Virus record (IMG/VR): IMGVR_UViG_3300025713_000650
Location: 64,001-128,000 of that record
From: a virus
Taxonomy: Duplodnaviria; Caudoviricetes
Length of the DNA: 64,000 nucleotides
Direction: 5' to 3' (one strand)
Below the pieces are notes generated by a model that made no database searches, had not been told where the DNA came from, and saw nothing but the letters and a program-made list of their open reading frames with translations. The translations under genes were made by a program, and so were the position numbers. This document shows, piece after piece, positions 8,945 through 62,856 of this stretch (within the stretch, counting starts at the first letter, position 1; every line of letters begins with the position of its first letter).

Positions 8945-11900
8945 TTAATCAATACTAATACCAATTGTTTTAAGATAGGCCTCTAATAATTTAACACTTT
9001 CTGGAGTTTGACATTCATCCTTTATTTCTCTTATAAATTCAGATCCAATCGAATCTCGAATATATTTATTTTTTAAATCAATTGAATCTGATTTCGTTGT
9101 TGTCATTTCTGTTAAATTAGTTAGACCCGCATGAGATATAAAACAAAATGTTTCCATTTCACCAGATCTTTGACCACCTTTATTTTTTCTACCACTGGGT
9201 GGTTGCATTGTTTTTCTCATATAAGGACCTATGCCTCTAGCTGCCAAACGTTCTTCAGCTATATGTACCATTCTAAAGAAATACATGTAACCTAATGCAA
9301 CTTTACTTATAATTTTTTGTTTTGATATCTCATCAAAAATATCATATCTAAATTCTGTATTTGTAAATTCACATGCCTTTTTAATTTGATCACAAGTAGA
9401 AGATTCAAAAGGTGGAGCTATAATATAGAAATTTTCTATAAATTTTTCATCTATAATAGAATTATTTAATTCTTCTTTAACTTGTAATGTGTACCAATTA
9501 TCTTTTGTATTATCTAAAATCTTAATATAATCTAAAATATACCCTTTTAACTCATCTTGACTTAATTCTTTATTATTTAACATTTCATTTAATTTAATTT
9601 TAAAATCATTTACAGACATACCCATATGTAATTCAAAAATCTGACCTACGTTCATTCTTGAATATGTTGATAATGGATTTATAATAATATCTACATGTTT
9701 TCCATCTTCTGTTTTGGGCATTAAATCATGGGGTAAAATTTTTGAAATAACACCTTTGTTTCCATGTCTATTTCCAATTTTATCACCTATTTGTATTTTT
9801 CTACTAAAAAATCCACCTATTTTTATATAAATACCATTAATTCTTTCACCTTTAAATTTAAATCTTCCTCGATTATTAAATCTATCTAATCCTTTTTCTC
9901 TAATAACTTCAATTGCTTTTTTCTTTGAAAATAATTTAAAAATTAATTCTTGAATTTTTTTATTATATGATATTTGACTCTCAAACTTTTTATCAACCCA
10001 ATGTCTAAATTGAGGTATTATATTATTATATTCATTTGGATAAATTTCAACATTTGTAATCAAAACATCTTTGTTATAAATTAAAGGAATATTTTCTTCA
10101 AAAATAGATAAATAATTCATTGGATCATTAGGAATATCTTTCATAATAGCATAAGGATTACCTTTTAAAATTAATTCTCTTTTATGTTTTCTATAATATG
10201 CTTTATCTTTTCCTGGCTCTGAAAATTCTATATCGGGATTTGGTTCAGGTAATGGTTTATACCTATTTTCATCTAAACTCAATAATAATTTATCTGGAGG
10301 TAAAACAAATGAAAGATTTGCATAATGAATTGATGTAAACGAATCATCATTTAATAATCTATCTGAAATTACAATTGCGTCTTCATAATTATATCCATAA
10401 AAAGGCATTATCGCAGTAAGAAGATTTTTTCCGATGTTAATGCTTCCATTTTTACAAAAATTACTCTCTGCGATTATATCTCCCTCTGAAACTTTATCAC
10501 CTAATTTAACATATACATGCATAATATCCATATTTTTTACATAAATATGTCTATTATCTATATCAAATATATCATAATCATTATCTTTATATGCAATAAT
10601 TACAAATTTTGAATCTAGATAAATTACTTCTCCATCTTTTTTTGCCCTTTTAATAAATTGGGTCTTATCAGTATATAAATTTTCACAACCAGATTGAATT
10701 AAAGGAACATCAAATTCAGAAAGATTAATAGCCTGTCTCATTTGTGACGCTGACATTTGTAATCTTGTTTGATCATCGTGTTCTAAAAATGGAATCATAG
10801 AAATAGCTACGGATGTTGGATTTTTTTCACATATTTCTTCATTAAAACGCATATTCTCATCATATTTTGTTGAAGGTAATAAACATTGCAATACACCACA
10901 ATTATCTCTATCAGATGTATCTACTGGACATATTCTTCCAAACATACTATCCGATAAATCTCTAAGATAATGTGGTACATTTGCTTTATTAAAACCACCA
11001 GGACCAACTAATGTAATTCTCGATAATTTTGTAAGCTCATCAATAGGATTAATTGAAAAATCAAACTGAACAATATCTGATAAATTACAATTAGCAAGAA
11101 TTTTCTTTGAATTAATATTAAATTTTATTTTTGATTTTCTACTTGATATACATAAATCATAAACATTCTTCATTATTGTTGACAGCACAACATATTCAAA
11201 ACATCTAATTCTTTTATTTGTATAATCTAAATCATCAATACTTTTATTATTTTTTAAAATATCTGTTAATTCATCTAAAACATTATCAAATCTCATAAAT
11301 TTGGAAGTGATAATATCAATTTTAGGGATCAATGATAAAGCATATGCAATAATTTCTCCTGTTTTCTTTTTATCATATTTAGTAAAATATTCACCCAGAT
11401 ATTCTTGATAATCAATATTATCTACATAATATGCATATAAATCAAATAATAATTTTTCATAATCTGTTTGAGGGTTATCATTAATAATATATTCATTTAA
11501 ATTAAATTTATTAACAATATAATCTGAATCAAAAGAAGCAAAATATACTAATGCAAATGGAATTTCTTTACCCATGAATGATAATTTAATATAAGGGTGT
11601 TTTTTTCCAGAAATAATTAAAATTGTTGATAAATTTGATCTAAATTTAATGTTTTTACCTCTTGTTACAATTGGAATATCATATAATTGAAATAATGGAA
11701 TTTTTCTTTTACCTGCAATTGAAAAATAATTACCATCAATTAATTTTGGAATATAAACACTCAAATCAATTTCTTGAGTATTTCTTTTGAATTTTATAAT
11801 GATATTTTTCTTTAAAGTTTTTTCAACTTCAGAAGAAGGTGATTCTTTAATATCAAATTCTGAAAGTATAAGACCAGCATCTTCTGCCGGTCTTAGTATT

Positions 11901-12001
11901 TCTCTAATATTCACCATTAAATTATTATATTCTTTTTCTCGTATATTAAATATATTTTCTTTGTTTTGAATTGAATAATTTGGATTCTTAATTCTCATCA
12001 A
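8945..12001 (-). CDS. rpoB: Multisubunit RNA polymerase beta-like subunit (set 1)
   Basis: GRICPVDT, PFLEHDD..R..M...QMRQA, GYNYEDAI, GDKIGNRHGNKGVI, SRMNVGQ, GGQRSGEME. Confidence 0.95.
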   Translation of the reverse strand: MMRIKNPNYSIQNKENIFNIREKEYNNLMVNIREILRPAEDAGLILSEFDIKESPSSEVEKTLKKNIIIKFKRNTQEIDLSVYIPKLIDGNYFSIAGKRKIPLFQLYDIPIVTRGKNIKFRSNLSTILIISGKKHPYIKLSFMGKEIPFALVYFASFDSDYIVNKFNLNEYIINDNPQTDYEKLLFDLYAYYVDNIDYQEYLGEYFTKYDKKKTGEIIAYALSLIPKIDIITSKFMRFDNVLDELTDILKNNKSIDDLDYTNKRIRCFEYVVLSTIMKNVYDLCISSRKSKIKFNINSKKILANCNLSDIVQFDFSINPIDELTKLSRITLVGPGGFNKANVPHYLRDLSDSMFGRICPVDTSDRDNCGVLQCLLPSTKYDENMRFNEEICEKNPTSVAISMIPFLEHDDQTRLQMSASQMRQAINLSEFDVPLIQSGCENLYTDKTQFIKRAKKDGEVIYLDSKFVIIAYKDNDYDIFDIDNRHIYVKNMDIMHVYVKLGDKVSEGDIIAESNFCKNGSINIGKNLLTAIMPFYGYNYEDAIVISDRLLNDDSFTSIHYANLSFVLPPDKLLLSLDENRYKPLPEPNPDIEFSEPGKDKAYYRKHKRELILKGNPYAIMKDIPNDPMNYLSIFEENIPLIYNKDVLITNVEIYPNEYNNIIPQFRHWVDKKFESQISYNKKIQELIFKLFSKKKAIEVIREKGLDRFNNRGRFKFKGERINGIYIKIGGFFSRKIQIGDKIGNRHGNKGVISKILPHDLMPKTEDGKHVDIIINPLSTYSRMNVGQIFELHMGMSVNDFKIKLNEMLNNKELSQDELKGYILDYIKILDNTKDNWYTLQVKEELNNSIIDEKFIENFYIIAPPFESSTCDQIKKACEFTNTEFRYDIFDEISKQKIISKVALGYMYFFRMVHIAEERLAARGIGPYMRKTMQPPSGRKNKGGQRSGEMETFCFISHAGLTNLTEMTTTKSDSIDLKNKYIRDSIGSEFIREIKDECQTPESVKLLEAYLKTIGISID

Positions 12002-12030
12002 ATATCCTCTTTTTTTATTTTTTTATAATT

Positions 12031-15000
12031 TTAAATATTTGTTTTCCTACCTAATAACATATTATCTAAGATACCAGAATATAAACCTTCATTAGATATA
12101 CCCCGTAAAAGATTCTTTTTCTGATTTGAAAATCCAAATCCCAATAACCATGATTCTTTACTTGGAATTGTTAAAATGCTAATAAATTCTGGAGAATAAT
12201 TGTTTCTATCTTTTAATAATCTCCATTTTTTATTACCATACCACATTAATTGAGAAACTACTGATTCAAAATGAACATAATGTATTTCTTTTGAATAATT
12301 ATAAATTTTAAATAATTTTTCAATCAATTCTTCACAATTTAAATCTTTATTTGAATGTAATAATTTAGATACAGATGATAAATCGCTAATAATATCTTCT
12401 TGTAACATATCCTCGCTACCCTTTTTAGTAATAGCTGCTCCCGAGTTATGTATAAATATTCCTGCCTTCAATGCAAAATTAGGATACTCTGAATCAACAG
12501 TTAAATCATAAAATTCTTCATATTCTGGTAAATCTATAAATTGTATATTTTTAACAAATCTATTATTTTTAATAAAATATCTGAATGACATTCGTTCAAT
12601 AAATTTTCCATTTTTGTTTTCTAATTTTGATTTATTTTTTCTATAGATTGGCATTAATTGATCATTAACTTGTAAATCTTTTGCTTCTTTGGAAGTTCCA
12701 TCTTGCATAATAAATTTATGATCTAATGTGCATTCAACTATTTCATCATTATCTAAAGTAACCTTAACCATTCTCTTTTCAAATCTATCTTTATAAGCAT
12801 TCACAATCTTGCTAATATATATGTCTCCTTCTGGAGAACAATTAAATGTATAAAAATCTTCACCATTTTTAACTTTGTCATAAACTTCTTGAATTTCAAA
12901 TGATTTATTATTAATATCTAAAATTCTTGTATTTTTTCTTAAACTCAAATGAAATGTGCGCAAAACTAACTGTGTAGATGCTTCACCTAAACTTTGAGCT
13001 GCAATCATTCCTATAAATGGTGAATGTAATATTTTATGTAAATCACCATAACACCTTTTACAAACCTTTTCACTTTTACAAAAAATAGGACTTCTAATTT
13101 TAATATTTTTACCAATTATATTCTTTAAATTATCATTTGTAATTAATTCTTCATTATCTCCATTTAAATAAAATTTATATAAAAGACATTTTGCCTTTTT
13201 CTCATCTTCAACGAATACATTTAGATAATCTTCAGTCCCACAATCATCAAGATTTGAATCTAATATTAAATTACAACATGCAAATGCAAGCTGTCTTGAT
13301 AAATAACCTGAATCTCCTGTATTTATTGCAACGTCTAAAAGACCTTTTCTGCAGCCATAACTTGAATTGAAAAATTCATATTGAGTTAAACCTTCAACTA
13401 AATTATTTTTAACTGGTGTTTCAATAATTTTTCCTGAAAAATTTGAGATAAATCCTCTTGATAATAATATCTGTCTTACCTGTTCCCATGTTCCTCTAGA
13501 ACCAGAATCTATGACATATGAATACATAAATTTATTTCTTAATTCATTTTCAATTTCTTTACTCGCTAATTCATTTAACTGTTCTCTAGAAGTATTTTTT
13601 GAATAGATTGTTTCTTTCAATTCATCAACATTATCAAGAATTAAACCATCTAAAGATAAAGTTGTTCCATATAATGTTGAATATTTATAACCTATCATTT
13701 TAATATCATCTAAAATCTTAGATGTAATTGTATAATCATATTTATCATTAATATCATTTAATAAATTAATAAGCTTCTTTTTATTAACAGGATCTTTTAT
13801 AATAGGATAATCTTCAGGTAAACATTCATTAAATATTTTTAAACTTTCTGTTATTTGTTCATTTTTATATTCAATCTGTTTATTTAATTCAGGAATCATA
13901 TTATTTGTTAAAATATAAACTCCTAAAATAATATCTTGAGAAGGAGTTGCTGATAGTGATATATTTGCAGGATTATATAAATTCTTAGTAAATAAGAATT
14001 TATCTAAAACTTCTTCTTTTGATTCTTTACTTATTGGTAAATATATTGCCATTTGATCTCCATCAAAATCTGCATTAAATCCCGCACATGCTAATGGATG
14101 AATTTTTATTACTTTATCAGTATTCATTTTAATCTTAAAACCTAATAAACTTAATCTGTGCAAAGAAGGTTGTCTATTTAATAAACAAACTTCATCCTTG
14201 ATTACTTCTTCACAAATAGAAATCAAATTTAATTTATCCATTTCAATACACTCATCTATATAATCAACAGCTTCATTTTGAAGTTTAAAGTGATTATAAT
14301 CTATTAATTTTTTTGAAATTTGTAATTTATATAATTCTAAAATCATTACATAAGGTAATGAACATTCGTCGATATCTATTACAGGATCAGGTGTAATTAT
14401 AGCTCTTCCTGAAAAATCTATCCTTTTACCTAATATATTTCCACGAATCAAACCCTCTTTTTTAGATAATTTATCCAAAATAAATTCATATAATGTATTA
14501 ACTAATTTTTGTAATTGTTTAAAATACATATAATATATTTCTTTTTTATTAAGAATATCTATATTTGTTTCTTCGATTGTTGCTTTATGATTTAAAAGGT
14601 GTGTATAATAACTATTTATTTCATCAGATTTCATTTGATCGTTTTTAGAACGAATTTTTGATGTTGGTCTTAAATCAGGAGGTAAAACTAAAACTTCATT
14701 GATCATTAAACTATCTATATGATCATTAATATATTTCCAATCAGGAATATCTATTAATTCTTCTGATAACCATGTTACTAATTTTATAATAGCCTCTGAT
14801 TTTTCATATTTTTTAAATTTTTCTGGAGGCCATTTTTCGTCATTTTCTTCAACTACAAAATGATTATTTTCTTCGTCAACATATAATGATGATTTTTCAT
14901 TTTTAATTAACAAATCTAATGGCTTTTTTATTTCACTTTTTCCTAATGAAACTAATAAATCATAAAAAATAGGATTTACAACAGGAATAGGTAAAATAAT

Positions 15001-15240
15001 TTTTGCAAATCTTTTTCTTCTTTCACGATTAGATGTAATATCAACATGACAAACAGGACATTTTTTATTTGAATTAGAAGGACCCCAATAAATTTCACAT
15101 TGACAAATATAATTTTTTAATGGACCAAAAATCTGTTCTGAAAAAAGACCATCTTTATGAAAATTTTTTTTATCTAAAATTTTTGATGTTTTAACTTCTT
15201 TAATTATCTTTATAAATTCCCTATTTATCAGTTTCGGCAT
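12031..15240 (-). CDS. rpoC: Multisubunit RNA polymerase beta'-like subunit (set 1), intein-containing
   Basis: GLFSEQIFGP, CQC...CPVC Zn site, PPDLRP, GKRIDFSGRA, NRQPSLH, catalytic NADFDGDQMA, RKGLLDVAINT..SGYL.R, TQLVLRTFH. Confidence 0.95.
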   Translation of the reverse strand: MPKLINREFIKIIKEVKTSKILDKKNFHKDGLFSEQIFGPLKNYICQCEIYWGPSNSNKKCPVCHVDITSNRERRKRFAKIILPIPVVNPIFYDLLVSLGKSEIKKPLDLLIKNEKSSLYVDEENNHFVVEENDEKWPPEKFKKYEKSEAIIKLVTWLSEELIDIPDWKYINDHIDSLMINEVLVLPPDLRPTSKIRSKNDQMKSDEINSYYTHLLNHKATIEETNIDILNKKEIYYMYFKQLQKLVNTLYEFILDKLSKKEGLIRGNILGKRIDFSGRAIITPDPVIDIDECSLPYVMILELYKLQISKKLIDYNHFKLQNEAVDYIDECIEMDKLNLISICEEVIKDEVCLLNRQPSLHRLSLLGFKIKMNTDKVIKIHPLACAGFNADFDGDQMAIYLPISKESKEEVLDKFLFTKNLYNPANISLSATPSQDIILGVYILTNNMIPELNKQIEYKNEQITESLKIFNECLPEDYPIIKDPVNKKKLINLLNDINDKYDYTITSKILDDIKMIGYKYSTLYGTTLSLDGLILDNVDELKETIYSKNTSREQLNELASKEIENELRNKFMYSYVIDSGSRGTWEQVRQILLSRGFISNFSGKIIETPVKNNLVEGLTQYEFFNSSYGCRKGLLDVAINTGDSGYLSRQLAFACCNLILDSNLDDCGTEDYLNVFVEDEKKAKCLLYKFYLNGDNEELITNDNLKNIIGKNIKIRSPIFCKSEKVCKRCYGDLHKILHSPFIGMIAAQSLGEASTQLVLRTFHLSLRKNTRILDINNKSFEIQEVYDKVKNGEDFYTFNCSPEGDIYISKIVNAYKDRFEKRMVKVTLDNDEIVECTLDHKFIMQDGTSKEAKDLQVNDQLMPIYRKNKSKLENKNGKFIERMSFRYFIKNNRFVKNIQFIDLPEYEEFYDLTVDSEYPNFALKAGIFIHNSGAAITKKGSEDMLQEDIISDLSSVSKLLHSNKDLNCEELIEKLFKIYNYSKEIHYVHFESVVSQLMWYGNKKWRLLKDRNNYSPEFISILTIPSKESWLLGFGFSNQKKNLLRGISNEGLYSGILDNMLLGRKTNI
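12445..12945 (-). mobile_element. Mini-intein (167 aa, Ser1, no endonuclease) in the beta' trigger loop
   Basis: RTFHL|SLRKNTRILD...VECTLDHKF (block B TxxH)...FYDLTV...NFAL..GIFIHN|SGAA. Confidence 0.9.
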
Positions 15241-29969: not shown

Positions 29970-30014
29970 AAAATCCGGGTTGGATAAAAATATAATTCAT
30001 CCAACCCGGATTTT
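29970..30014 (-). terminator. Strong intrinsic terminator
   Basis: 16-bp perfect inverted repeat aaaatccgggttggat / atccaacccggatttt followed by a U-tract on the minus strand. Confidence 0.85.
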
Positions 30015-30125
30015 AACTTATTTCTTCTTGGTGAACTGTCTCCCGCTTTGAGAAGCGGGAGCTTCCTAGTCAATATCTCTACTGAGACAAGTTTACCTAG
30101 GCTTACAAGGCCGTTCCGGCCTCTT
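30015..30125 (-). ncRNA. Orphan IS200/IS605 right end / TnpB omega-RNA-like scaffold with 16-nt guide-position segment
   Basis: Minus strand: GGCCGGAACGGCC hairpin...GAAGCTCCCGCTTCTCAAAGCGGGAGACAGTTCAC. Same architecture as the tnpB right end at 61306-61415; no tnpB ORF adjacent. Confidence 0.65.
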
Positions 30126-30148
30126 TTAATCTTTTTACAGAGCTAAAC

Positions 30149-32050: not shown

Positions 32051-32643
32051 AATTTCTCTCCCTTCTTAATAATTTCTTCAATAATTAATGTTTTATTTTT
32101 TTGCATGTTTTTAAAACAAAAATCAATAATATTTTCTTTATTGTTTTCTTGAAGAAATTTTCTCTGAAAATAATTATTATATTTATATTTTTCAAAAATA
32201 AATATTTCAATTTTATTCCATATATTTAAAAAAAATTCTTTAACAAATTTAGTTTTAAAATCAATATTTAAATTAATTAAAAGATCAGTAAAAAATTCTA
32301 CATTATCATATTCTAACCATTCTAAAAATTGTAAAAGTTTATCAAAATCTGATTCAGATGTACAATCAATCAAATTAACAAAATTAAAATTATAAACTTC
32401 TTGAACTTTTTGAATTATCTTTCTACTTAATTCTAATTTATCTTCTAATTTATATTGTTTTATAAATATAAAACAATTTGAATAAACTTCCTTAAAGTTC
32501 TCTTTGCCTATACTATCCAATAAATTATTATTATCATATTCATTACTAGACATTTCAACTAAATTTTTATCATCATCTTCTTCAATTTCTAATGTTGGAG
32601 ATGATTGTTTTATTAATGTTTTAATATTTTCTTCACCTATCAT
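32047..32643 (-). CDS. Hypothetical protein
   Basis: 198-aa ORF translationally coupled (ATGA) to the beta-like gene. Confidence 0.7.
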   Translation of the reverse strand: MIGEENIKTLIKQSSPTLEIEEDDDKNLVEMSSNEYDNNNLLDSIGKENFKEVYSNCFIFIKQYKLEDKLELSRKIIQKVQEVYNFNFVNLIDCTSESDFDKLLQFLEWLEYDNVEFFTDLLINLNIDFKTKFVKEFFLNIWNKIEIFIFEKYKYNNYFQRKFLQENNKENIIDFCFKNMQKNKTLIIEEIIKKGEKL

Positions 32644-35600
32644 AATAATTTCCTTTCATCTAACATTAGAGCATTAAAATATGCATCTAATTGTTCCCTA
32701 GCTAAAGATTGTTTTGTATATTTAAATGATGTATTCCCTTGTTGTATAATTTCAGATATCATTTCATTTTGAGATGATCTATCATCAGATAAAGGACCCA
32801 TCATTTCAGATAATAAATGTACTGCATTATAAGATAATGTTGCTATAGTATCGGCCTCTCCAAACCTTTGACCACCTTCTAATTTTTTACCACCAGTGGG
32901 TTGTTCTAATCTTGTTAATTTACCCGTTGATCTTGCATGAATTTTTAATTCAGCAATATGTTCCAACTTACTAATATAAGAATATCCCACCGGAACTTTA
33001 TGGTGTGTTTTTATATTGTATTCTGGAAGATATAAATTATATCCAGATTGTAAATTTAAAACTTTCATTACAGATTTTATCTGATTTAAATTTGGTGATT
33101 GAAAAGGAATAAAAACAAGAGGGAAAAATCCTCTTTCAACAATAGATTTAATAAATATTTTATATTGATTATCACTTAGATTTGAAATATTATTAATAAA
33201 TCTTGTAGAAAATTCTTTATTTTTACTATTGTCAAATAATGTCAATACTTTTTTCAATAAAGAAATAACATTAGTTCTAGAATTATTTTTAGTAATTCTT
33301 AAAGCTAAATCCTTAGATATTAATCCTGAATATAATTCAAATAACTGACCAATGTTCATTCTTCCAATAATACCAACGGGATTAAGTACAATATCTAATT
33401 TTTCTCCCCATGGTGTTCTTGGCATATTTTCGTCTTTTTCAACTAAAGAAATAATACCTTTATTTCCATATCTACCTGTTAATTTATCACCTAAACCTAT
33501 TTTAAATTCCTGTTGAACTTTAAATTTAATCAAGATACCTTTAATTAATTTACCTTTTACATAAAATTTATCTTTTGGTAATAATCCATATCTTTCTCTT
33601 GTTCGATCAATCAAATATTTAATTTTTGGAAATTTATTATCTCCAATATTAGTATATATTTCAATATCTACAACAACACCACCGGGACTCTTCTTTATTA
33701 TATCTTGTCCTATTCTACTTATAGTTTCATCTTCTTCATAACCTAATAATTCTTCAATTGTACCTACTGTTTTTTTTATTAAAGGTTCTCCTTTTTTTGT
33801 ACTTGAACCAATGTCAATTATTTCTAAAATTCTATCTTTTTCCTCAACTAAAACTTCTTCAATAATAGCATGTAAAGATGTTAATTTATCTTCCTTTATT
33901 AATTTTTCGTTTATAACAATACCATCTTCAAAATTATATCCTTTATATGGCATATATCCAATAAGAAAAGATCTACCTAAACAAAGACTTCCATCCTTAA
34001 TACCACTACCTTCTGCTAATATTTGACCTTTTTGTACAACCTGATTAGTTTTTACAACCGGTATAAATACGCTTAATGTGTCTCTTCCAAATCCAGATTT
34101 TAAATGAATTGGTTTAATATCTATATTGTGTTTTTTTCCTTTTTCATCAGAAACTAAAATAAAATCTCGATTAATCTCTAAAATTCTACATTTAAATGGA
34201 GCTTTTTTAATAAAACTATTAGATAAATATTCAGAAACAATAGATTCATAACCAGATAAAACAATAGGTGGTTCTGGATTTTTTAGTGGTAAAGCCTGTT
34301 TCATCTGTGCACAAGACATCATTATCCTAGCACCATCATTATTTTCAACAAATGGAATCATAGAAGAAGATACTGATAAAATTCCAGATCCCTCAGTATC
34401 ACTTATTTTTTTATCTTTAAATAATCCTCTTGCACTTGTTATAAGAGCATTTACAGCTAATTGTTGATTTACACCTATATTTTCACCTTCGGGTGTATCA
34501 ATTGGATCAATATTACCATAATAAGAAGGGTGAACATTTCTCATTTCAACTTGAATTGATTCTTTACTTGGTACACCACCTAAATTTTTACCTACGGGTG
34601 TAATTTTAGTTATAGCTGCTAATTCCTCAATTGGATTTGCAAATTCTAATGTTGAGACAATTTCTGAATTAATAAATGCTGATAATGTTGCAGTTGGATT
34701 AATTTCAAATTTTGCTTTTTTATTTCCAGATAAAACTTGTTCTTTATATTTTGTATATTCTGCTAGTATTTGTTTTTGAATTAAATGAATTAAAACCTCA
34801 GAACCTCTTATTCTTTGATTTTTTAAATCATTCCTATCATCAACCTTTCCTTCAATAACCTTCAAAGACATATATTTCATTATTTTATCTAATTCATATG
34901 GTAAATTTTGATTGATTAAAACTTGCTTAACTACAGGATCAACAATATTTTCAAGATTTAATGAGATCATATATGTTGAATGTCGTATCCCTGTTATAAA
35001 GATTATAAGATCATTAAAATATTCATTTTCTCCAAAATTTTTATCTGATTCAAATTCTTCAAATTTAACAGTAAGAAGAGAATTAAATAATTGTTTTTTT
35101 AATTCAGAATTAATATTTGTAAAATATAAATACTTATCTTTATTTATTTGAATTACTTTATCTTGATCTTTTGGATTTTCCTCCGATATATTATATTTAA
35201 GATCAAATAATGTCATTGTTTTATCAAATCCAAAAGTAAACCACATTAATATGATTAAAGGTATTTTGTAATTACCCATAAAAATTCTAAGATATCTTTC
35301 GTTTTTATACTTTAAACTTTCTATATGAAATGCTGAATATGAACTGGTAAATCTTGAATCATATGGTTTTGGAAAACTTATTGGACATAATATTATTTGA
35401 TTAACAAGATATTTTGTTTCACCATTTAATTTAAATGTTCCGGTTTCGGGATTTATTTTAGGAACCTCAATAGAAACAGTATGGTTATTATTAAACATAT
35501 CTTTTAATTCAACTTTAACAACATTTAAATCCGATCTATTTATTTCTCCAGGTCTTTCTTTTTTATCTTCAATTACAATGTCTTGAATTTTAAGCTTAAT

Positions 35601-36770
35601 ATCTTTTTTCTCTAAAGTTTTAAACGAATTTGTTAAATCTTTTTTAAAGTTATAGCTAAAATCAACAATTCTTTTTTGATATAATTGAGATGGATTTTTA
35701 TCGCCTATTTGTTTTTCAATATCCATTGTTTCTATCACTTTATCTGATGATAGTGATTTCGTTTTTTCTTTTACTAATAACTCGTCAACATATTCTTTTT
35801 CAACTTTTTTCAAAACTTTGTTTGTTTTGTTATCTGGTATTGTTTTAGTAACATTTTTTGAAATTTTTAAATTATTTGTATTTTTATATATAACAGACTG
35901 TATTGCTGTCTTTTTAATAATTGGATCATTTTTATCAGCTTTAATTATTTTCTTTGCTAATGTTTTTTCTTTATTTAATAAATCATTTACGCTAGTCTTT
36001 ACCTTTTCTACATTTTTAGATAATAAATCTTTTTTTGTATTATCTATAACTTTTTTTGTAGCATGTTTAATAATTTCTTCATCTTCTCGATCATCAACAT
36101 CAACTCCATCTTCTTCATCTTCTTCATAACTACCTTTATATTTTAAGCTTTTTAAAATTGGAAATATTCTTTCAAAATTTACTTGCTTATTTTTTACTAA
36201 TAATCTATACTTCACACCTTTTTCAGTTATTAATGTTAATAAAAGATGGTCAAAATCAAAATCTTGCTTTTTAAGATCTCTTATAAATAAATAAAATTTT
36301 CTATTTACCCAATTCTTATTAAATGGTTTTGTTAAATCAATACAATACATCAAAACTTTTTCATAATCTGCAAATTGATAAAAAGCATTTTCAACATTTC
36401 TTTTTATCAAAACACCAGATCTTGTTCTATAATTACTTGGTTTATATAATTCATCAATAGTAGAAGTATAGATAGATGTATCATAAAGAAGACTTCTTTT
36501 GGCTGGTGGTTTTTGATTATGTTGAAATGGATATATTTTTAATGATCTGTATGCTGTTTTTAATTTTGTCGTTAGGAATGTAACCGGTATTTTTGTTCTT
36601 GGAATAATAACATTTCTAACATCAATTTTTAAAATATTTAATTTTTCATAACACTCTAAAAGTGTAGTATTTTCAGAGAAAAATACTAAAATATAAGGAT
36701 TTTTCTTAAATAACCATCTAATTGCATTTACTACATGAGTATATTGTCTTAAATTTTTAAATTGTATCAT
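32640..36770 (-). CDS. rpoB: Multisubunit RNA polymerase beta-like subunit (set 2) with long N-terminal extension
   Basis: VHPSYYGNIDPIDTPEGENIG, PFVENNDGARIMM...QMKQA, GYNFEDGI, GDKLTGRYGNKGII, GRMNIGQ, GGQRFGE. Confidence 0.95.
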   Translation of the reverse strand: MIQFKNLRQYTHVVNAIRWLFKKNPYILVFFSENTTLLECYEKLNILKIDVRNVIIPRTKIPVTFLTTKLKTAYRSLKIYPFQHNQKPPAKRSLLYDTSIYTSTIDELYKPSNYRTRSGVLIKRNVENAFYQFADYEKVLMYCIDLTKPFNKNWVNRKFYLFIRDLKKQDFDFDHLLLTLITEKGVKYRLLVKNKQVNFERIFPILKSLKYKGSYEEDEEDGVDVDDREDEEIIKHATKKVIDNTKKDLLSKNVEKVKTSVNDLLNKEKTLAKKIIKADKNDPIIKKTAIQSVIYKNTNNLKISKNVTKTIPDNKTNKVLKKVEKEYVDELLVKEKTKSLSSDKVIETMDIEKQIGDKNPSQLYQKRIVDFSYNFKKDLTNSFKTLEKKDIKLKIQDIVIEDKKERPGEINRSDLNVVKVELKDMFNNNHTVSIEVPKINPETGTFKLNGETKYLVNQIILCPISFPKPYDSRFTSSYSAFHIESLKYKNERYLRIFMGNYKIPLIILMWFTFGFDKTMTLFDLKYNISEENPKDQDKVIQINKDKYLYFTNINSELKKQLFNSLLTVKFEEFESDKNFGENEYFNDLIIFITGIRHSTYMISLNLENIVDPVVKQVLINQNLPYELDKIMKYMSLKVIEGKVDDRNDLKNQRIRGSEVLIHLIQKQILAEYTKYKEQVLSGNKKAKFEINPTATLSAFINSEIVSTLEFANPIEELAAITKITPVGKNLGGVPSKESIQVEMRNVHPSYYGNIDPIDTPEGENIGVNQQLAVNALITSARGLFKDKKISDTEGSGILSVSSSMIPFVENNDGARIMMSCAQMKQALPLKNPEPPIVLSGYESIVSEYLSNSFIKKAPFKCRILEINRDFILVSDEKGKKHNIDIKPIHLKSGFGRDTLSVFIPVVKTNQVVQKGQILAEGSGIKDGSLCLGRSFLIGYMPYKGYNFEDGIVINEKLIKEDKLTSLHAIIEEVLVEEKDRILEIIDIGSSTKKGEPLIKKTVGTIEELLGYEEDETISRIGQDIIKKSPGGVVVDIEIYTNIGDNKFPKIKYLIDRTRERYGLLPKDKFYVKGKLIKGILIKFKVQQEFKIGLGDKLTGRYGNKGIISLVEKDENMPRTPWGEKLDIVLNPVGIIGRMNIGQLFELYSGLISKDLALRITKNNSRTNVISLLKKVLTLFDNSKNKEFSTRFINNISNLSDNQYKIFIKSIVERGFFPLVFIPFQSPNLNQIKSVMKVLNLQSGYNLYLPEYNIKTHHKVPVGYSYISKLEHIAELKIHARSTGKLTRLEQPTGGKKLEGGQRFGEADTIATLSYNAVHLLSEMMGPLSDDRSSQNEMISEIIQQGNTSFKYTKQSLAREQLDAYFNALMLDERKLL

Positions 36771-39700
36771 TATCGTCTCTCTACTATTTTTCCAGTTAGT
36801 ATTTTTTCTATCATAGAAGGTGGTAATTCTTGATCTGAAGTCAACCCAACCTTTATTGCTTCACCTATATTTTCAAATGCTAAACCTTGTAAGAAACTTG
36901 TAGAAAAAACATTCTTCTTGATGTTTAATAATGTTGGATCAAATGGATTAGAACCTAATCTTGCTGGTATCATTACATTTTTTTTATCTCTCATACATTG
37001 AGATAATAAAACTTCAAGATGAACAAGATCGAAGTTACTTAAATTTTCATAAACTTTATATAATTTTAAAAATAAATGATTATTATCTTTAAAAATTTCT
37101 TTACCAGATAATATTCTTTTAAGATAAAGAATACTTTCTTTTATTTCTTGATATTCAATAGGAACATCTAAAATTAAATCACCTTTTTTATATTCAATTA
37201 TTATCTTTTTATCTGTTTTGGTTAATTCATTATAAAATATTTTTACAGAATAATCCAAAATCACATCAAATTCAATATTATCTGCAGTAACAATACATAA
37301 CAAACCTTTAAGATATATATTTCTTTCATTTTCATTAATAAATAAATTTGAATTTTCAGTATAATCTGATAAATCTAATTTTAATTTAAATTCTATATTA
37401 CAATACAATTTCTGATCTGTTTGTTTAAAATATTTATTTACAATATTAGACTTTAAATTAACATTATTATTAATTATTTCTTTTAAAATATCTCGTTTAA
37501 TTAGACTAATTGCTCCACCTTTATGAAAGGTTCTCATAATATTCTGAGTTCCACTTTCACCAACTACTTGAGCTGCATACATTCCAACAAATGGTGTACC
37601 ATGTCTTTCTAACAATCTTCCATAACACGTATGACATATTTTAGGACTTTCACAATAAATTGGAGATCTTAATTGAATTATATCTCCAGGTTTAAATTTA
37701 GACTTATTAAATTCAACAACTTCATCATTTATCTTTATATATCTACCAGTTAAACGAGAAATTATATCTTTTGTTAATTTAACTTCTAAACAATTTTTAG
37801 TTCCACAATCTTTTAAAAATAAATCTAATTCCACAGAATTTAATAAATAAATTAATTGTCTTGTAGTATAACCTGTTTCAGCTGTATTTAAAACTCTATC
37901 AATAATTCCTTTTCTTGCACCATAAGAAACATTAAAATATTCAGTTGGTTTTAGACCCTCAGAAAGTGAACTTTTAATTGTTGGTAAAATATTTCCTTGT
38001 GTATCTGCAATAATACCTTTGGCTATTAATATTTGTGTTGGTTGATCCCATCCTTTTGTTGAACCAGATTCTACTAAATCATATAACCCCGTATCTTTTA
38101 AATGATCAATCATCATTAATTTCATTTCATTTAAAAGTTTTGATGCTTCTTCGGTTGATGCATTTTGTAGTTTCTTTTTTAATCTATAAATTTTTTCAGG
38201 AATTTCTAAATCATCAAGAGTTATTGAGGGTGAAAAAAGCGTAGCAAATTTAAAAGCATATTTCTGCAGGTTAAAAGATGTCTTTAAAATAGTTTCTCTA
38301 TCATATTTATTAGTTAATTTTAAAAATAATTCATTAATTTCTTTTTTAGTTATTAATTTATCAACAAAAGTAAAGTTTGAAGGGAAACAACTATTAAAAA
38401 TTGCTTTTCCTAATGTTGTTCTTTTATTTTTATAGATTGTAGGTATTGTTGGATCACTATATTTATCTCTTTCACTAAGATTAAATGTTATTGGTGATTT
38501 TCTTGATGAATAATCTTTTGTTAAAATATATAAACCGGCACAGGCTTCTTTTGATAATGCAAATCCTAAAGAATATGAAGATGTTGATGAAACTAATTTT
38601 GTCATCTTTTTAGCGTCTTCTTGTGCTTCATTTGATAAAGGATGAAAAATAGCCATTTGGTCTCCATCAAAATCGGCATTAAAACCACCAACATCTAAAT
38701 TTGAAATTCTTACTGTATTTCCTTCTATAAGAATTGGAGTAAAAGCTCTTACTGATTCTGGGTGTAATACGGGATCTCTCTTTGCTAAAACTAAACGATC
38801 TTTCATAGATGTTTCTGTTATGTCATAAAAAATTTTATATAATTTAGGTGGTATATAATCACCATTCTTAATTGATGTCATTATTTTTTTAATTGTATCA
38901 ATTGATACTTCTTGTTTTGTAAAATTTTCAATTTCTTTTCTAATTATTTCTTTTCTTTCAATAGGTGAATATAAAATTAAATGTAAAATAAATGGCTCAA
39001 AAAGTGAAATAGCCATTTTAAAAGGTATTCCTATTTCATCACCTCTTAATTCTGGTCCGCAAGAAATAACAGCTCTACCTGAATAATCAACACGCTTACC
39101 TAAAATACTAGATCTTATTAAACCATATTTATGAGAAATTTTTTCTCTAGTAAATTCATCTAAATCATTTACAGATTTTTGAATATTAAAATTTAAAATA
39201 TCAAAAAATGGTGATTTTACATCTATTGGTTTAATTGATATACTTCTAGTAATTAGAGAAGTATAAAAATTATTCATTTTATCCTGAATCCATCTTCCTT
39301 CATTATCTTTATATATTGGTCTAAAATCAGGAGGAACAACTGGAATTTTATCTACAAATAAGGTTCCTTGTTTAAATGCACCTTTAATCATATCTGATAG
39401 TTTTTTTCTTTCTGGTGTGTGTTCTCTAAAATTAATATTAGGAAAAATCTTTATAAAATTATTAATTCCGTTTATACCCTTTTCATCCTCTTGTAAAATA
39501 CCATTTGTATCTAAATTAAAAGTTTTTTCAACAGATATAAAATCAATTATTTTTCTATCCAATTGCTTCAAAATCTTAAATGCAGTAGGATGAATAATTT
39601 TACAATTTAATTCTATATATGAATAAGTATTTGTTCTTAAAGAGCTACCTAAAGGACCAAATATAATCTCTGAGAAAATTCCGCCTTCATGAAATTCATC

Positions 39701-39781
39701 AGATTTTGTAACTGTTGTTGACGTTTTAACTGGCTTTAAATTCTTACAAAAATTATTTACATCCATTAATTTAATTAACAT
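36770..39781 (-). CDS. rpoC: Multisubunit RNA polymerase beta'-like subunit (set 2)
   Basis: GIFSEIIFGP, PPDFRP, GKRVDYSGRAVI, RDPVLH, NADFDGDQMA, ARKGIIDR..NTAETGY, TQNIMRTFHKGG. Confidence 0.95.
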   Translation of the reverse strand: MLIKLMDVNNFCKNLKPVKTSTTVTKSDEFHEGGIFSEIIFGPLGSSLRTNTYSYIELNCKIIHPTAFKILKQLDRKIIDFISVEKTFNLDTNGILQEDEKGINGINNFIKIFPNINFREHTPERKKLSDMIKGAFKQGTLFVDKIPVVPPDFRPIYKDNEGRWIQDKMNNFYTSLITRSISIKPIDVKSPFFDILNFNIQKSVNDLDEFTREKISHKYGLIRSSILGKRVDYSGRAVISCGPELRGDEIGIPFKMAISLFEPFILHLILYSPIERKEIIRKEIENFTKQEVSIDTIKKIMTSIKNGDYIPPKLYKIFYDITETSMKDRLVLAKRDPVLHPESVRAFTPILIEGNTVRISNLDVGGFNADFDGDQMAIFHPLSNEAQEDAKKMTKLVSSTSSYSLGFALSKEACAGLYILTKDYSSRKSPITFNLSERDKYSDPTIPTIYKNKRTTLGKAIFNSCFPSNFTFVDKLITKKEINELFLKLTNKYDRETILKTSFNLQKYAFKFATLFSPSITLDDLEIPEKIYRLKKKLQNASTEEASKLLNEMKLMMIDHLKDTGLYDLVESGSTKGWDQPTQILIAKGIIADTQGNILPTIKSSLSEGLKPTEYFNVSYGARKGIIDRVLNTAETGYTTRQLIYLLNSVELDLFLKDCGTKNCLEVKLTKDIISRLTGRYIKINDEVVEFNKSKFKPGDIIQLRSPIYCESPKICHTCYGRLLERHGTPFVGMYAAQVVGESGTQNIMRTFHKGGAISLIKRDILKEIINNNVNLKSNIVNKYFKQTDQKLYCNIEFKLKLDLSDYTENSNLFINENERNIYLKGLLCIVTADNIEFDVILDYSVKIFYNELTKTDKKIIIEYKKGDLILDVPIEYQEIKESILYLKRILSGKEIFKDNNHLFLKLYKVYENLSNFDLVHLEVLLSQCMRDKKNVMIPARLGSNPFDPTLLNIKKNVFSTSFLQGLAFENIGEAIKVGLTSDQELPPSMIEKILTGKIVERR

Positions 39782-61305: not shown

Positions 61306-61415
61306 TTGAACCTCTCCACCTTACGTTTCACTTAGAAGGTGGAGATTCTCGTTTCATCAACCTCGTAACCTACTATCTCCACGAGCCTCTTATATTCGGG
61401 TCGTTCCAACCCTAT
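61306..61415 (-). ncRNA. TnpB omega-RNA-like scaffold / element right end
   Basis: GGGTTGGAACGACCC hairpin immediately after the tnpB stop; terminal hairpin ending GTTCAA. Confidence 0.6.
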
Positions 61416-61421
61416 TTTATT

Positions 61422-61646
61422 TTAAGCTGTTAAGCCTAATTCTTTTAATCCTTGATTAAGTATATTTACTGCGGCATTTACATCTCTCTGGTGATTGGCA
61501 TTACACTTTGGACATATCCATTGCCTAACATTTAAGTCTTTAGTATCTGTATTTTTATATCCACATACATTACATGTTTGACTTGATGCATAGAACCTAT
61601 CTATTTTATGATATATCTTATCATGCCATACTGATTTATACTCAAT
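61422..61646 (-). pseudogene. tnpB: tnpB 3' fragment (Zn ribbon plus last RuvC motif); not in the ORF track
   Basis: IEYKSVWHDKIYHKIDRFYASSQTCNVCG...WICPKCNANHQRDVNAAVNILNQGL. Confidence 0.9.
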
Positions 61647-62412
61647 CTATAATAATATATTTTCTATTATCATTTTGAATTTCTCCATTATGTAATTTCT
61701 TTTTAAAAGTATTAAAACAACAATTAAGAGAATTTTTATTAGACTGATAAGCTTCTTTTATAGATTTAAATATTATACTTGTATCAACACATAAAACTTT
61801 TTTACTTAACCTTTCTGCATTTATTTCTTTGTTTTTATTTGATATTTTATTACCTTTCATAGATTGAGAAATTTTATTTTTTATTTCTTGTGTATGTTTA
61901 TGACCTTTATGCGATTCACTTAAATTAGTGATATGTTTTTCAGATAATGTTTTATCCTTATTAAAAGGAGTGTGACCATTTTTAAAACCAAAATTACTAT
62001 TTTTATTTGCTAACATTTTAACAGCTCTTGTTCTTGATAATTCTCTAAAATAATCGTCATTTTTATACTTGTTTTTCAAACCATCACTAATTTTTTGATT
62101 ATATGTGTTATTTTCTTCCTCAGTATACCCCTTTCTAACATTGCCACCATTTCCGCCTTCTGCGATATTATATCCATTTGGCCTAATAGAATTGAAAAAT
62201 TGTATATAATACTTTTCTTTCTCAACCAATTCTTCTTCTGAGTCGCATTTGTATATTGTTTCTTTAGTAAAATTTTCTCTTCCGTATTTTTTATATGCGT
62301 TTTTTAATATTTTACCAGAACCCTAATAATTATTAAAATTATTACCCTGATATTTGCCTATATATATTTTACCATTAATAGTATTTGTTATTTTATATAT
62401 TATCACAATCAT
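61642..62412 (-). pseudogene. GIY-YIG homing endonuclease with NUMOD3-like repeats, interrupted by an in-frame TAG at 62323-62325
   Basis: MIVIIYKITNTINGKIYIGK...NY*GSG...KYGRENF...EKYYI...NGYN; in frame with ORF 61642..62229. Confidence 0.88.
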
Positions 62413-62696
62413 ACACTCCTTAGTGAAATACTGTCAACCTCACGCAACCATTCGTATTGCTTTTTTAAATTGGTTAAATCATTTGCACAAACATTGTAAG
62501 TCATTGACTTTTGTTTTGTTTTATACAATTCAATTCTTTGTGCTAAATAATGATTATGTACAAATCTACAACAGCCGATAGTCTTATTGATTAACTCTGT
62601 TTGTTGTTTGTTTGGGTATATACGATACTTATATGCTTTTAATATAGTTTTCAAGTATTTCACCGCCTCTCTATTATTAATGCACTGTTTTGTCAA
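62409..62696 (-). pseudogene. tnpB: tnpB 5' fragment (HTH_OrfB_IS605); real start probably TTG near 62654
   Basis: LKAYKYRIYPNKQQ...IGCCRFVHNHYL...LKKQYEWLREVDSISL, then truncation. Confidence 0.9.
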
Positions 62697-62769
62697 CAGT
62701 CACCAATTCATCTCCCACTTTCGCTACGCTTAGAAGTGGGAGTGTTCTTGGCGATTAGGATAAATATTT

Positions 62770-62856
62770 GGCAAGAAAACCGCGATCCCTTTAGGGTAGC
62801 GGATGAATTGCCTACCCTTGTGTGCGAATGTATTGCTCAATGACACTCTTGCTTAC
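62770..62856 (-). mobile_element. tnpA: Remnant of a second IS200/IS605 element: tnpA C-terminal 14 codons plus end hairpin
   Basis: 62856-62812 reads VSKSVIEQYIRTQG* (Y1 transposase catalytic helix YIxxQ); adjacent gcaagaaaaccgc...gcggatgaattgc end motif. Confidence 0.7.

Follow-up and report, generated by a model that had tools for sequence, protein, structure and literature searches.

A GIY-YIG homing endonuclease-type gene in place of the RuvC core of tnpB in phage IS200/IS605 elements

The window analyzed here is a 64,000-nucleotide stretch of viral DNA (Duplodnaviria; Caudoviricetes), positions 64,001 to 128,000 of IMG/VR record IMGVR_UViG_3300025713_000650. It contains an insertion sequence (IS) of the tnpB-only (IS1341-like) IS200/IS605 type in which the middle of tnpB, the gene for the RNA-guided nuclease TnpB, has been replaced by a gene of the GIY-YIG homing endonuclease kind (Table 1). 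This anatomy had been proposed in an earlier note made from the letters alone, and Pfam and PHROG profiles together with an alignment to the intact element of viral contig L002 bear it out. The ends given there also coincide with those found here, the terminal GGTTCAA on one side and a left end (LE) preceded by TTTAT on the other, with every part on the minus strand.

Contig L002 encodes an intact 390-amino acid (aa) TnpB, and its element matches both arms of the window copy at 98-99% DNA identity, from LE through right end (RE). In the alignment to this closest intact tnpB, codon 92 is the last before the break and codon 317 the first after it. Homology ends at ...TTTCACTA (codon 92) and restarts at GATTGAGTATAAA (codon 316/317), and the stretch between them, 672 bp or 224 tnpB codons of the OrfB_IS605/RuvC core, has been exchanged for 773 nt. 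The loss of central TnpB described earlier can thus be placed at codons 93-316, RuvC core included. What remains in the window is a helix-turn-helix (HTH) piece at the N terminus and a zinc-ribbon piece at the C terminus. The former (Pfam HTH_OrfB_IS605, E=1.7e-20) covers positions 4-79 of the 403 in profile phrog_506 and is 94% identical to residues 1-93 of the L002 protein; the latter (Cas12f1-like_TNB, E=4e-20) covers positions 301-369 and is 98.6% identical to L002 residues 317-390. Profile positions ~80-300 are gone, while the parent type in L002 has all three domains. As the RuvC core is missing, the element cannot make an RNA-guided nuclease of its own.

The two junctions are as tight as had been claimed, with a GTATGA overlap at the 5′ junction and a GATTGAG overlap at the 3′ junction. 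The inserted cassette begins with AGGAGTGTATG and contains, again as noted earlier, its own AGGAG ribosome-binding site. Its open reading frame (ORF) starts 8 nt past the 5′ junction and runs beyond the 3′ junction, such that the last endonuclease codon (GAT) and the stop (TGA) are tnpB bases read in another frame. A sigma-70 scan called no promoter in the left end; its best match (62437-62408) spans the 5′ junction and is treated as a chance hit since its -10 box overlaps the start codon. No tnpA was found in the window by tblastn, and none lies in the element.

The RE is 99-100% identical to that of L002 and of the other chimeras described below. An RNAalifold consensus of seven diverged right ends contains 36 base pairs, 12 of them with compensatory changes, and an Rfam scan of the region matched no family. 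The region is presumably transcribed as an omega-RNA. An orphan right end of the IS605 type, or omega-RNA-like scaffold, lies elsewhere in the window (29970-30139, minus strand) with no tnpB attached. It comprises a GGCC-GGAAC-GGCC hairpin, a CTCCCGCTT...AAGCGGGAG hairpin and the terminus ...CAGTTCAC, followed by a strong terminator hairpin, and is similar to the RE studied here in architecture but different in sequence.

Table 1 Features of the chimeric element in the window (positions are those of the 64,000-nt stretch)
Feature	Position	Strand	Remarks
Whole element including TTTAT	61306-62764	-	tnpB-only IS200/IS605 type
TTTAT target/TAM pentanucleotide	62760-62764	-	directly 5′ of left end
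Left end (LE)	62697-62759	-	98% identical to LE of intact element L002
LE subterminal hairpin	62711-62742	-	75% identical to right-end hairpin, same orientation
tnpB N-fragment	62409-62696	-	95 aa: 92 tnpB codons plus RSV and stop from the cassette
Homing endonuclease cassette, 773 nt (AGGAG ribosome-binding site and ORF)	61648-62420	-	in place of tnpB codons 93-316
GIY-YIG/NUMOD3 ORF	61642-62412	-	256 codons; pseudogene in the window copy
In-frame TAG, endonuclease codon 30	62323-62325	-	TGG (Trp) in other copies
tnpB C-fragment	61422-61646	-	74 aa; zinc ribbon and last RuvC motif, ...HQRDVNAA...
Right end (RE) and presumed omega-RNA scaffold	61306-61421	-	terminus GGTTCAA at 61306
RE subterminal hairpin	61313-61345	-	orientation as LE hairpin

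The ORF within the cassette matches PHROG 314, annotated as homing endonuclease, at E=5.6e-37. Pfam matches are below their cut-offs, both for GIY-YIG (PF01541, 17.6 bits against a cut-off of 22.6) and for NUMOD3 at residues 170-198 (E=0.004). A profile of the family alignment (A3) searched against the PDB retrieved the catalytic domain of I-TevI (1LN0, E=9e-12), and the tail of the protein can be aligned from end to end with free-standing relatives carrying PF07460/PF22083. Catalysis by GIY-YIG enzymes relies, in I-TevI numbering, on the Tyr of GIY, the Tyr of YIG, Arg27, Glu75 and Asn90. In alignment A3 the motifs IIY and YIG, Glu66 and Asn82 (in GYNIAEGG) are invariant and align to Y6, Y17, E75 and N90 of I-TevI. 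Judged by these profile and residue matches, the protein is a relative of the GIY-YIG homing endonucleases.

The protein falls in P0003, a cluster of 71 members at 90% identity, and the window sequence is 96% identical to that cluster. The next best relatives, outside the P0003 clade, are only ~40% (38-41%) identical and are free-standing homing endonuclease genes (HEGs) of phages that adjoin ribonucleotide reductase genes, which suggests that a free-standing HEG switched target. A search of 185,579 species genomes did not recover the cassette clade; the only relative, 43% identical, is in a Methanobrevibacter assembly.

In the window itself the endonuclease gene is interrupted. Codon 30 is TAG, where all 38 other complete copies have TGG, and this is the one internal stop among the 39 complete endonuclease ORFs. 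The TAG removes everything past residue 29, and the next possible start would yield a 195-aa product lacking the GIY and YIG motifs, which marks the window gene as a pseudogene. Reassignment of the stop codon was considered as a source of the TAG and ruled out: the window is densely coding under translation table 11, TAG is used as a terminator and the other copies have TGG. The earlier note had missed this codon, and its description of a shell carrying a homing nuclease does not hold for the window copy, which is not a working nuclease gene. With the HEG stopped and the core of tnpB gone, the element in the window by its reading frames encodes no nuclease at all. The same TAG is present in two further assemblies, on contigs of 114 kb and 127 kb (L150 and L151) that reproduce the window base for base over 6.1 kb (100% identity). 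The window copy thus appears to be a fossil of the process described below, fixed in its phage lineage.

The earlier note had suggested a search for further copies with the same junctions at different loci, and these exist. In all, 42 cassette loci were recovered by looking up cluster members and by scanning viral and metagenome contigs; they come from biogas, wastewater and other samples. Both junctions are present in 39, invariably 773 nt apart and at the same tnpB positions, and these 39 complete copies occupy ten or more insertion sites. Two loci (L101 and L102) follow the cassette only to about nt 585 before the sequence departs and are probably decayed or rearranged. A unique recombination scar or a misassembly, which the earlier note had set against its own reading beforehand, is ruled out by junctions that recur in 39 copies from many samples. 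Taken alone, and by nothing else, the window would allow a one-off scar, an assembly error or an intron- or intein-like insertion that still yields a whole TnpB. The first two are at odds with the recurrent junctions and with the exact reproduction of the window in L150 and L151, and the last with the absence of 224 tnpB codons, with an ORF that fills the insert and with the lack of any Rfam group I intron. We regard this family of explanations as hardly credible. A group I intron or IStron was also rejected as a candidate in its own right; Rfam returned nothing at E up to 1, there is no room for a ribozyme beside an ORF that fills the insert, and the 224 codons are missing.

The cassette and the tnpB arms that adjoin it have very different histories. 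The cassette DNA forms four groups that are 96-100% identical, with synonymous divergence (dS) of at most 0.13 and a ratio of nonsynonymous to synonymous divergence (dN/dS) of 0.12-0.14. The arms, clustered at 95% identity, form 12 N and 9 C clusters that are mutually 63-93% identical; with truncated N0/C0 variants of the main type set aside, ~10 N-types and ~8 C-types remain. Sequence identity falls within a few bases of each cassette junction. Between arm types dS ranges from 0.6 to above 2, with dN/dS of 0.06-0.2 and open frames, which indicates that the arms diverged as functional genes. Most arm types match different intact TnpBs of 375-379 aa at 96-100% aa identity, which indicates that the cassette entered extant alleles. 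The presence of a 96-100% identical cassette in about ten long-diverged tnpB alleles points to an endonuclease gene that itself moves between tnpB genes by homing. A young, selected gene that occupies one position in many alleles, themselves old and still living, is the classical signature of a homing endonuclease gene. We consider it probable that the tnpB gene of a tnpB-only IS200/IS605 element was invaded by a GIY-YIG HEG of the free-standing type, which spreads by homing into tnpB alleles.

Homing of this kind would begin with the encounter of a HEG-bearing element and an intact relative in the same cell, as may happen in phage co-infection. The endonuclease would cut the intact tnpB in or beside the ~670-bp core that is missing from the HEG-bearing allele, and the latter, without that core, would be immune. 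Repair of the break from the HEG-bearing copy, with the conserved N- and C-terminal parts of tnpB serving as homology arms, would swap the RuvC core for the 773-nt cassette. The incoming gene would bring its own AGGAG, would probably rely on the left-end promoter of tnpB for transcription, and would borrow its last codon and stop from tnpB. Neither intron nor intein would be needed, tnpB being dispensable to the phage. An element invaded in this way may still move through TnpA supplied in trans. In the window lineage, the HEG would later have gained its TGG-to-TAG nonsense mutation.

The domain make-up of the window endonuclease is that of the free-standing phage GIY-YIG HEGs such as the Seg enzymes of T4, which join an I-TevI-type domain to a NUMOD3/helix-turn-helix tail. 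Together with intronless homing (Belle et al. 2002; reviews PMC13565253 and PMC2988022), these genes are among the closest known systems, and two further features have counterparts here: the inferred route, double-strand-break repair from a HEG-bearing donor in co-infection, and the population signature, a conserved HEG in diverged flanks. The differences are equally clear. Classical free-standing HEGs sit between conserved phage genes that are left intact, whereas the cassette lies inside a gene of which ~670 bp are deleted. It targets the nuclease gene of another mobile element, not a gene of host or phage, and takes its stop codon from that target, and co-conversion tracts, in contrast to the classical cases, are almost absent.

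This last difference is one of several observations that weigh against homing. The sharp drop in identity at the junctions leaves almost no co-conversion, which is unusual for GIY-YIG homing. Nonetheless, a break made in sequence that has no counterpart in the donor could let the recipient arms survive up to the junctions, and the near absence of co-conversion fits such an arrangement. Arms of only 63-80% identity are poor substrates for homologous repair. A DNA-conservation profile of 48 intact tnpB genes gave no candidate cut site and no peak at the junctions. In the comparison with I-TevI, the region of Arg27 falls in a gap opposite the Y-x-GSG motif of this subfamily, and an equivalent residue could not be placed. 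On metagenome contigs, the pairing of N and C arms could result from assembly across the 773-nt repeat, although each arm-cassette junction recurs in several samples. Finally, no insertion site was found with both an intact and a HEG-bearing tnpB among the window, terminase and SPbeta-like sites. All contigs with the same 237-aa neighbor as the window carry the chimera, with neither an intact tnpB nor an empty site among them (a pattern scan found no IMG/VR relative of this neighbor protein); a search for intact tnpB at the terminase and SPbeta-like sites returned chimeras only, and the closest intact TnpB (P0137) sits at a different site.

One pair of elements also points to continuing exchange of the cassette. 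Contig L087 belongs to the same phage lineage as the window and carries the element at the same site; the two differ by 0.3% in the phage flank, by 0% in both arms and by 3.35% in the cassette, with all 26 mismatches of the element inside the cassette. Confinement of the differences to the cassette indicates that the HEG allele was exchanged by recombination. This exchange would need only ordinary recombination, because an allele that already bears the HEG should be immune to its own enzyme. It can also be read as a sign of passive spread, in which an inert cassette is passed among IS copies by the general homologous recombination of co-infecting phages with no cutting of its own. Recombination rates in phage co-infection are indeed high. 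Recombination between arms of 63-80% identity should nonetheless be rare and should not favor the cassette-bearing form, and an inert passenger would not be expected to remain under purifying selection (dN/dS 0.12-0.14), to be uninterrupted in 38 of 39 complete copies or to conserve the catalytic GIY, YIG, Glu and Asn. We consider passive spread very improbable.

The sites at which the chimeras are found raise the alternative of transposition. Across the insertion sites compared, ten or more in number, the left end always follows TTTAT, and the upstream flanks differ. The same pentanucleotide is the transposon-adjacent motif (TAM) of TnpB2 from ISGst2 (PMC10055086). At a site beside the terminase gene (site B), an IS-less allele (L167) reads TTTAT followed by AAAAACATG, and the IS-bearing allele has its right end followed by AAAAACATG. 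The element thus has the end features of the IS200/IS605 family, subterminal hairpins in LE and RE and insertion 3′ of a fixed TTTAT without duplication. In these respects, and in the shared orientation of the similar LE and RE hairpins, the structured RE that overlaps the 3′ end of tnpB and the TTCAA terminus, it resembles ISGst2 of Geobacillus stearothermophilus (Meers et al., PMC10055086) and ISDra2, tnpB-only elements with an omega-RNA. Like elements of the ISGst2 type it is non-autonomous and lacks tnpA; it differs from both in having lost codons 93-316 of its TnpB to the gene of a protein-guided nuclease.

The terminase site has a further peculiarity. The sister phages compared there (L167:5850-7047 versus L093:131-1592) are 98-99% identical through terminase and portal, and phages without the chimera hold in its slot either a C5 DNA methyltransferase gene (~1.2 kb; L166 and L167) or another gene (L168). 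The IS-bearing allele lacks the methyltransferase as well as 6 nt at the start of the left end, with a TAAT microhomology at the joint, and a deletion or swap appears to have come with the element. IS-less alleles were found for this site only, and the absence of the methyltransferase from the IS-bearing allele complicates the picture.

Near-identical chimeras (arms 98-100%, cassette 99-100%) occur at five or more TTTAT sites in unrelated phages, among them the site beside the terminase, an SPbeta-like Yon gene block and the jumbo phage of the window, and homology between them extends precisely to the IS ends and no further. Another arm type (L099 and L100) is found at two sites. Together with the TTTAT at every site, the IS-less allele with TTTAT at the exact insertion point and the intact end hairpins, these copies could suggest that one illegitimate recombination made a single chimera, which has since spread only as a non-autonomous IS605 shell through TnpA in trans, with the endonuclease as a passenger. 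Transposition, however, can neither place a 96-100% identical cassette between arms with dS above 1 that match different intact TnpBs, nor swap a cassette allele within identical arms at one site, as in L087. The multi-site copies would equally result if intact ISs were invaded after insertion. No tnpA is present in the window, and the only linked one seen is a 70-aa remnant in an element of the tnpA+tnpB type (L131:3539-3751 and L141:355-567). Its 70 codons retain the HUH region and the C-terminal end and have lost the middle; both transposon genes of that element are thus gutted. We judge spread by TnpA alone to be improbable, and as sole mechanism the sequence comparisons contradict it; as an additional route it is possible.

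The multi-site chimeras possibly reflect transposition of a chimera or repeated invasion of intact copies that had transposed earlier; they fit both equally. An invaded element keeps LE, RE and the guide-RNA region, and may thus still be moved by TnpA in trans. TnpA transposition of the shell is accordingly best regarded as a possible second route beside homing of the HEG, not the main one. The earlier proposal of a TnpA-mobilizable shell therefore stands in part. Ends, hairpins, TTTAT and multi-site copies speak for it, but it fails to explain a cassette in about ten diverged alleles.

A bolder reading would make the HEG-bearing shell a three-way parasite: it would home into any related tnpB by its own protein-guided nuclease, move through TnpA in trans, and keep a working omega-RNA that lets an intact TnpB from sister elements re-install it at emptied donor sites. 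Its endonuclease would, in addition, be a natural agent by which TnpB genes are inactivated in phage populations. On this reading the breakpoints, with the end of the cassette just upstream of the zinc ribbon and omega-RNA and both element ends untouched, would have been selected rather than accidental. We offer it tentatively and think it doubtful.

The window has a G+C content of 24%, and every long ORF is on the minus strand, densely packed under the standard code. Neighboring genes encode a RuvC-like resolvase, a virion protein, an AAA protein and a 5′-3′ exonuclease, among others. The virion protein has distant relatives in AR9/PBS1-like and staphylococcal jumbo phages, and on such protein similarities the host of the element is a jumbo phage of the AR9/PBS1-like kind, if a distant one. 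No named phage is a close DNA relative of the window; only scattered pieces match, at 66-72% identity. Two pairs of very long ORFs (1003-1376 aa) lie at 8945-15240 and 32640-39781. Past the 3′ edge of the window, the same phage carries a gene for a 437-aa RRXRR/HNH nuclease (L150:89-1402) a few genes upstream of the element, a further candidate selfish nuclease in its vicinity. Directly upstream of TTTAT lies a G+C-rich motif of ~55 nt (62765-62817, minus strand), a GGGTAGGCAATTCATCCGCTACCC hairpin followed by AAAGGGATCGCGGTTTTCTTGCC. Two viral contigs that are otherwise unrelated (L169 and L170) share this motif at 91-92% identity, with different sequence after it. No Rfam family matches it, and it could be a terminator common to these contigs or else a small element, mobile or structured.

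None of HEGs, intronless homing, IS605 elements or IStrons is new. IStrons, in which a group I intron is fused to an IS605/IS607 tnpB module (PMC4227781, bioRxiv 10.1101/2023.11.20.567912), are a close parallel as nested chimeras of homing-type and IS605-type parts, frequent in Firmicutes and their phages. They differ from the window element, which has no ribozyme, in that tnpB is kept rather than destroyed; the partner here is a protein homing endonuclease gene, and it is guest rather than host. The papers searched, among them a 2026 review of homing endonucleases and the OMEGA system, contain no description of a protein HEG resident in tnpB that overwrites the RNA-guided nuclease core.

HEGs normally hide in introns or inteins or between genes, since destruction of the target would harm the host. 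Where the target is itself a selfish gene, an endonuclease gene can simply overwrite it. The chimeras described here clearly exemplify one parasite exploiting another, in that a protein-guided nuclease replaces an RNA-guided one in the same mobile shell. The population data are clean, comprising 39 complete copies in about ten invaded alleles, with the invader under selection. If the enzyme cuts as proposed, it would be a natural sequence-specific inactivator of a TnpB subfamily and a test system for conflict between mobile elements in phages, and its kind of invasion may explain some of the many gutted tnpB remnants found in genomes.

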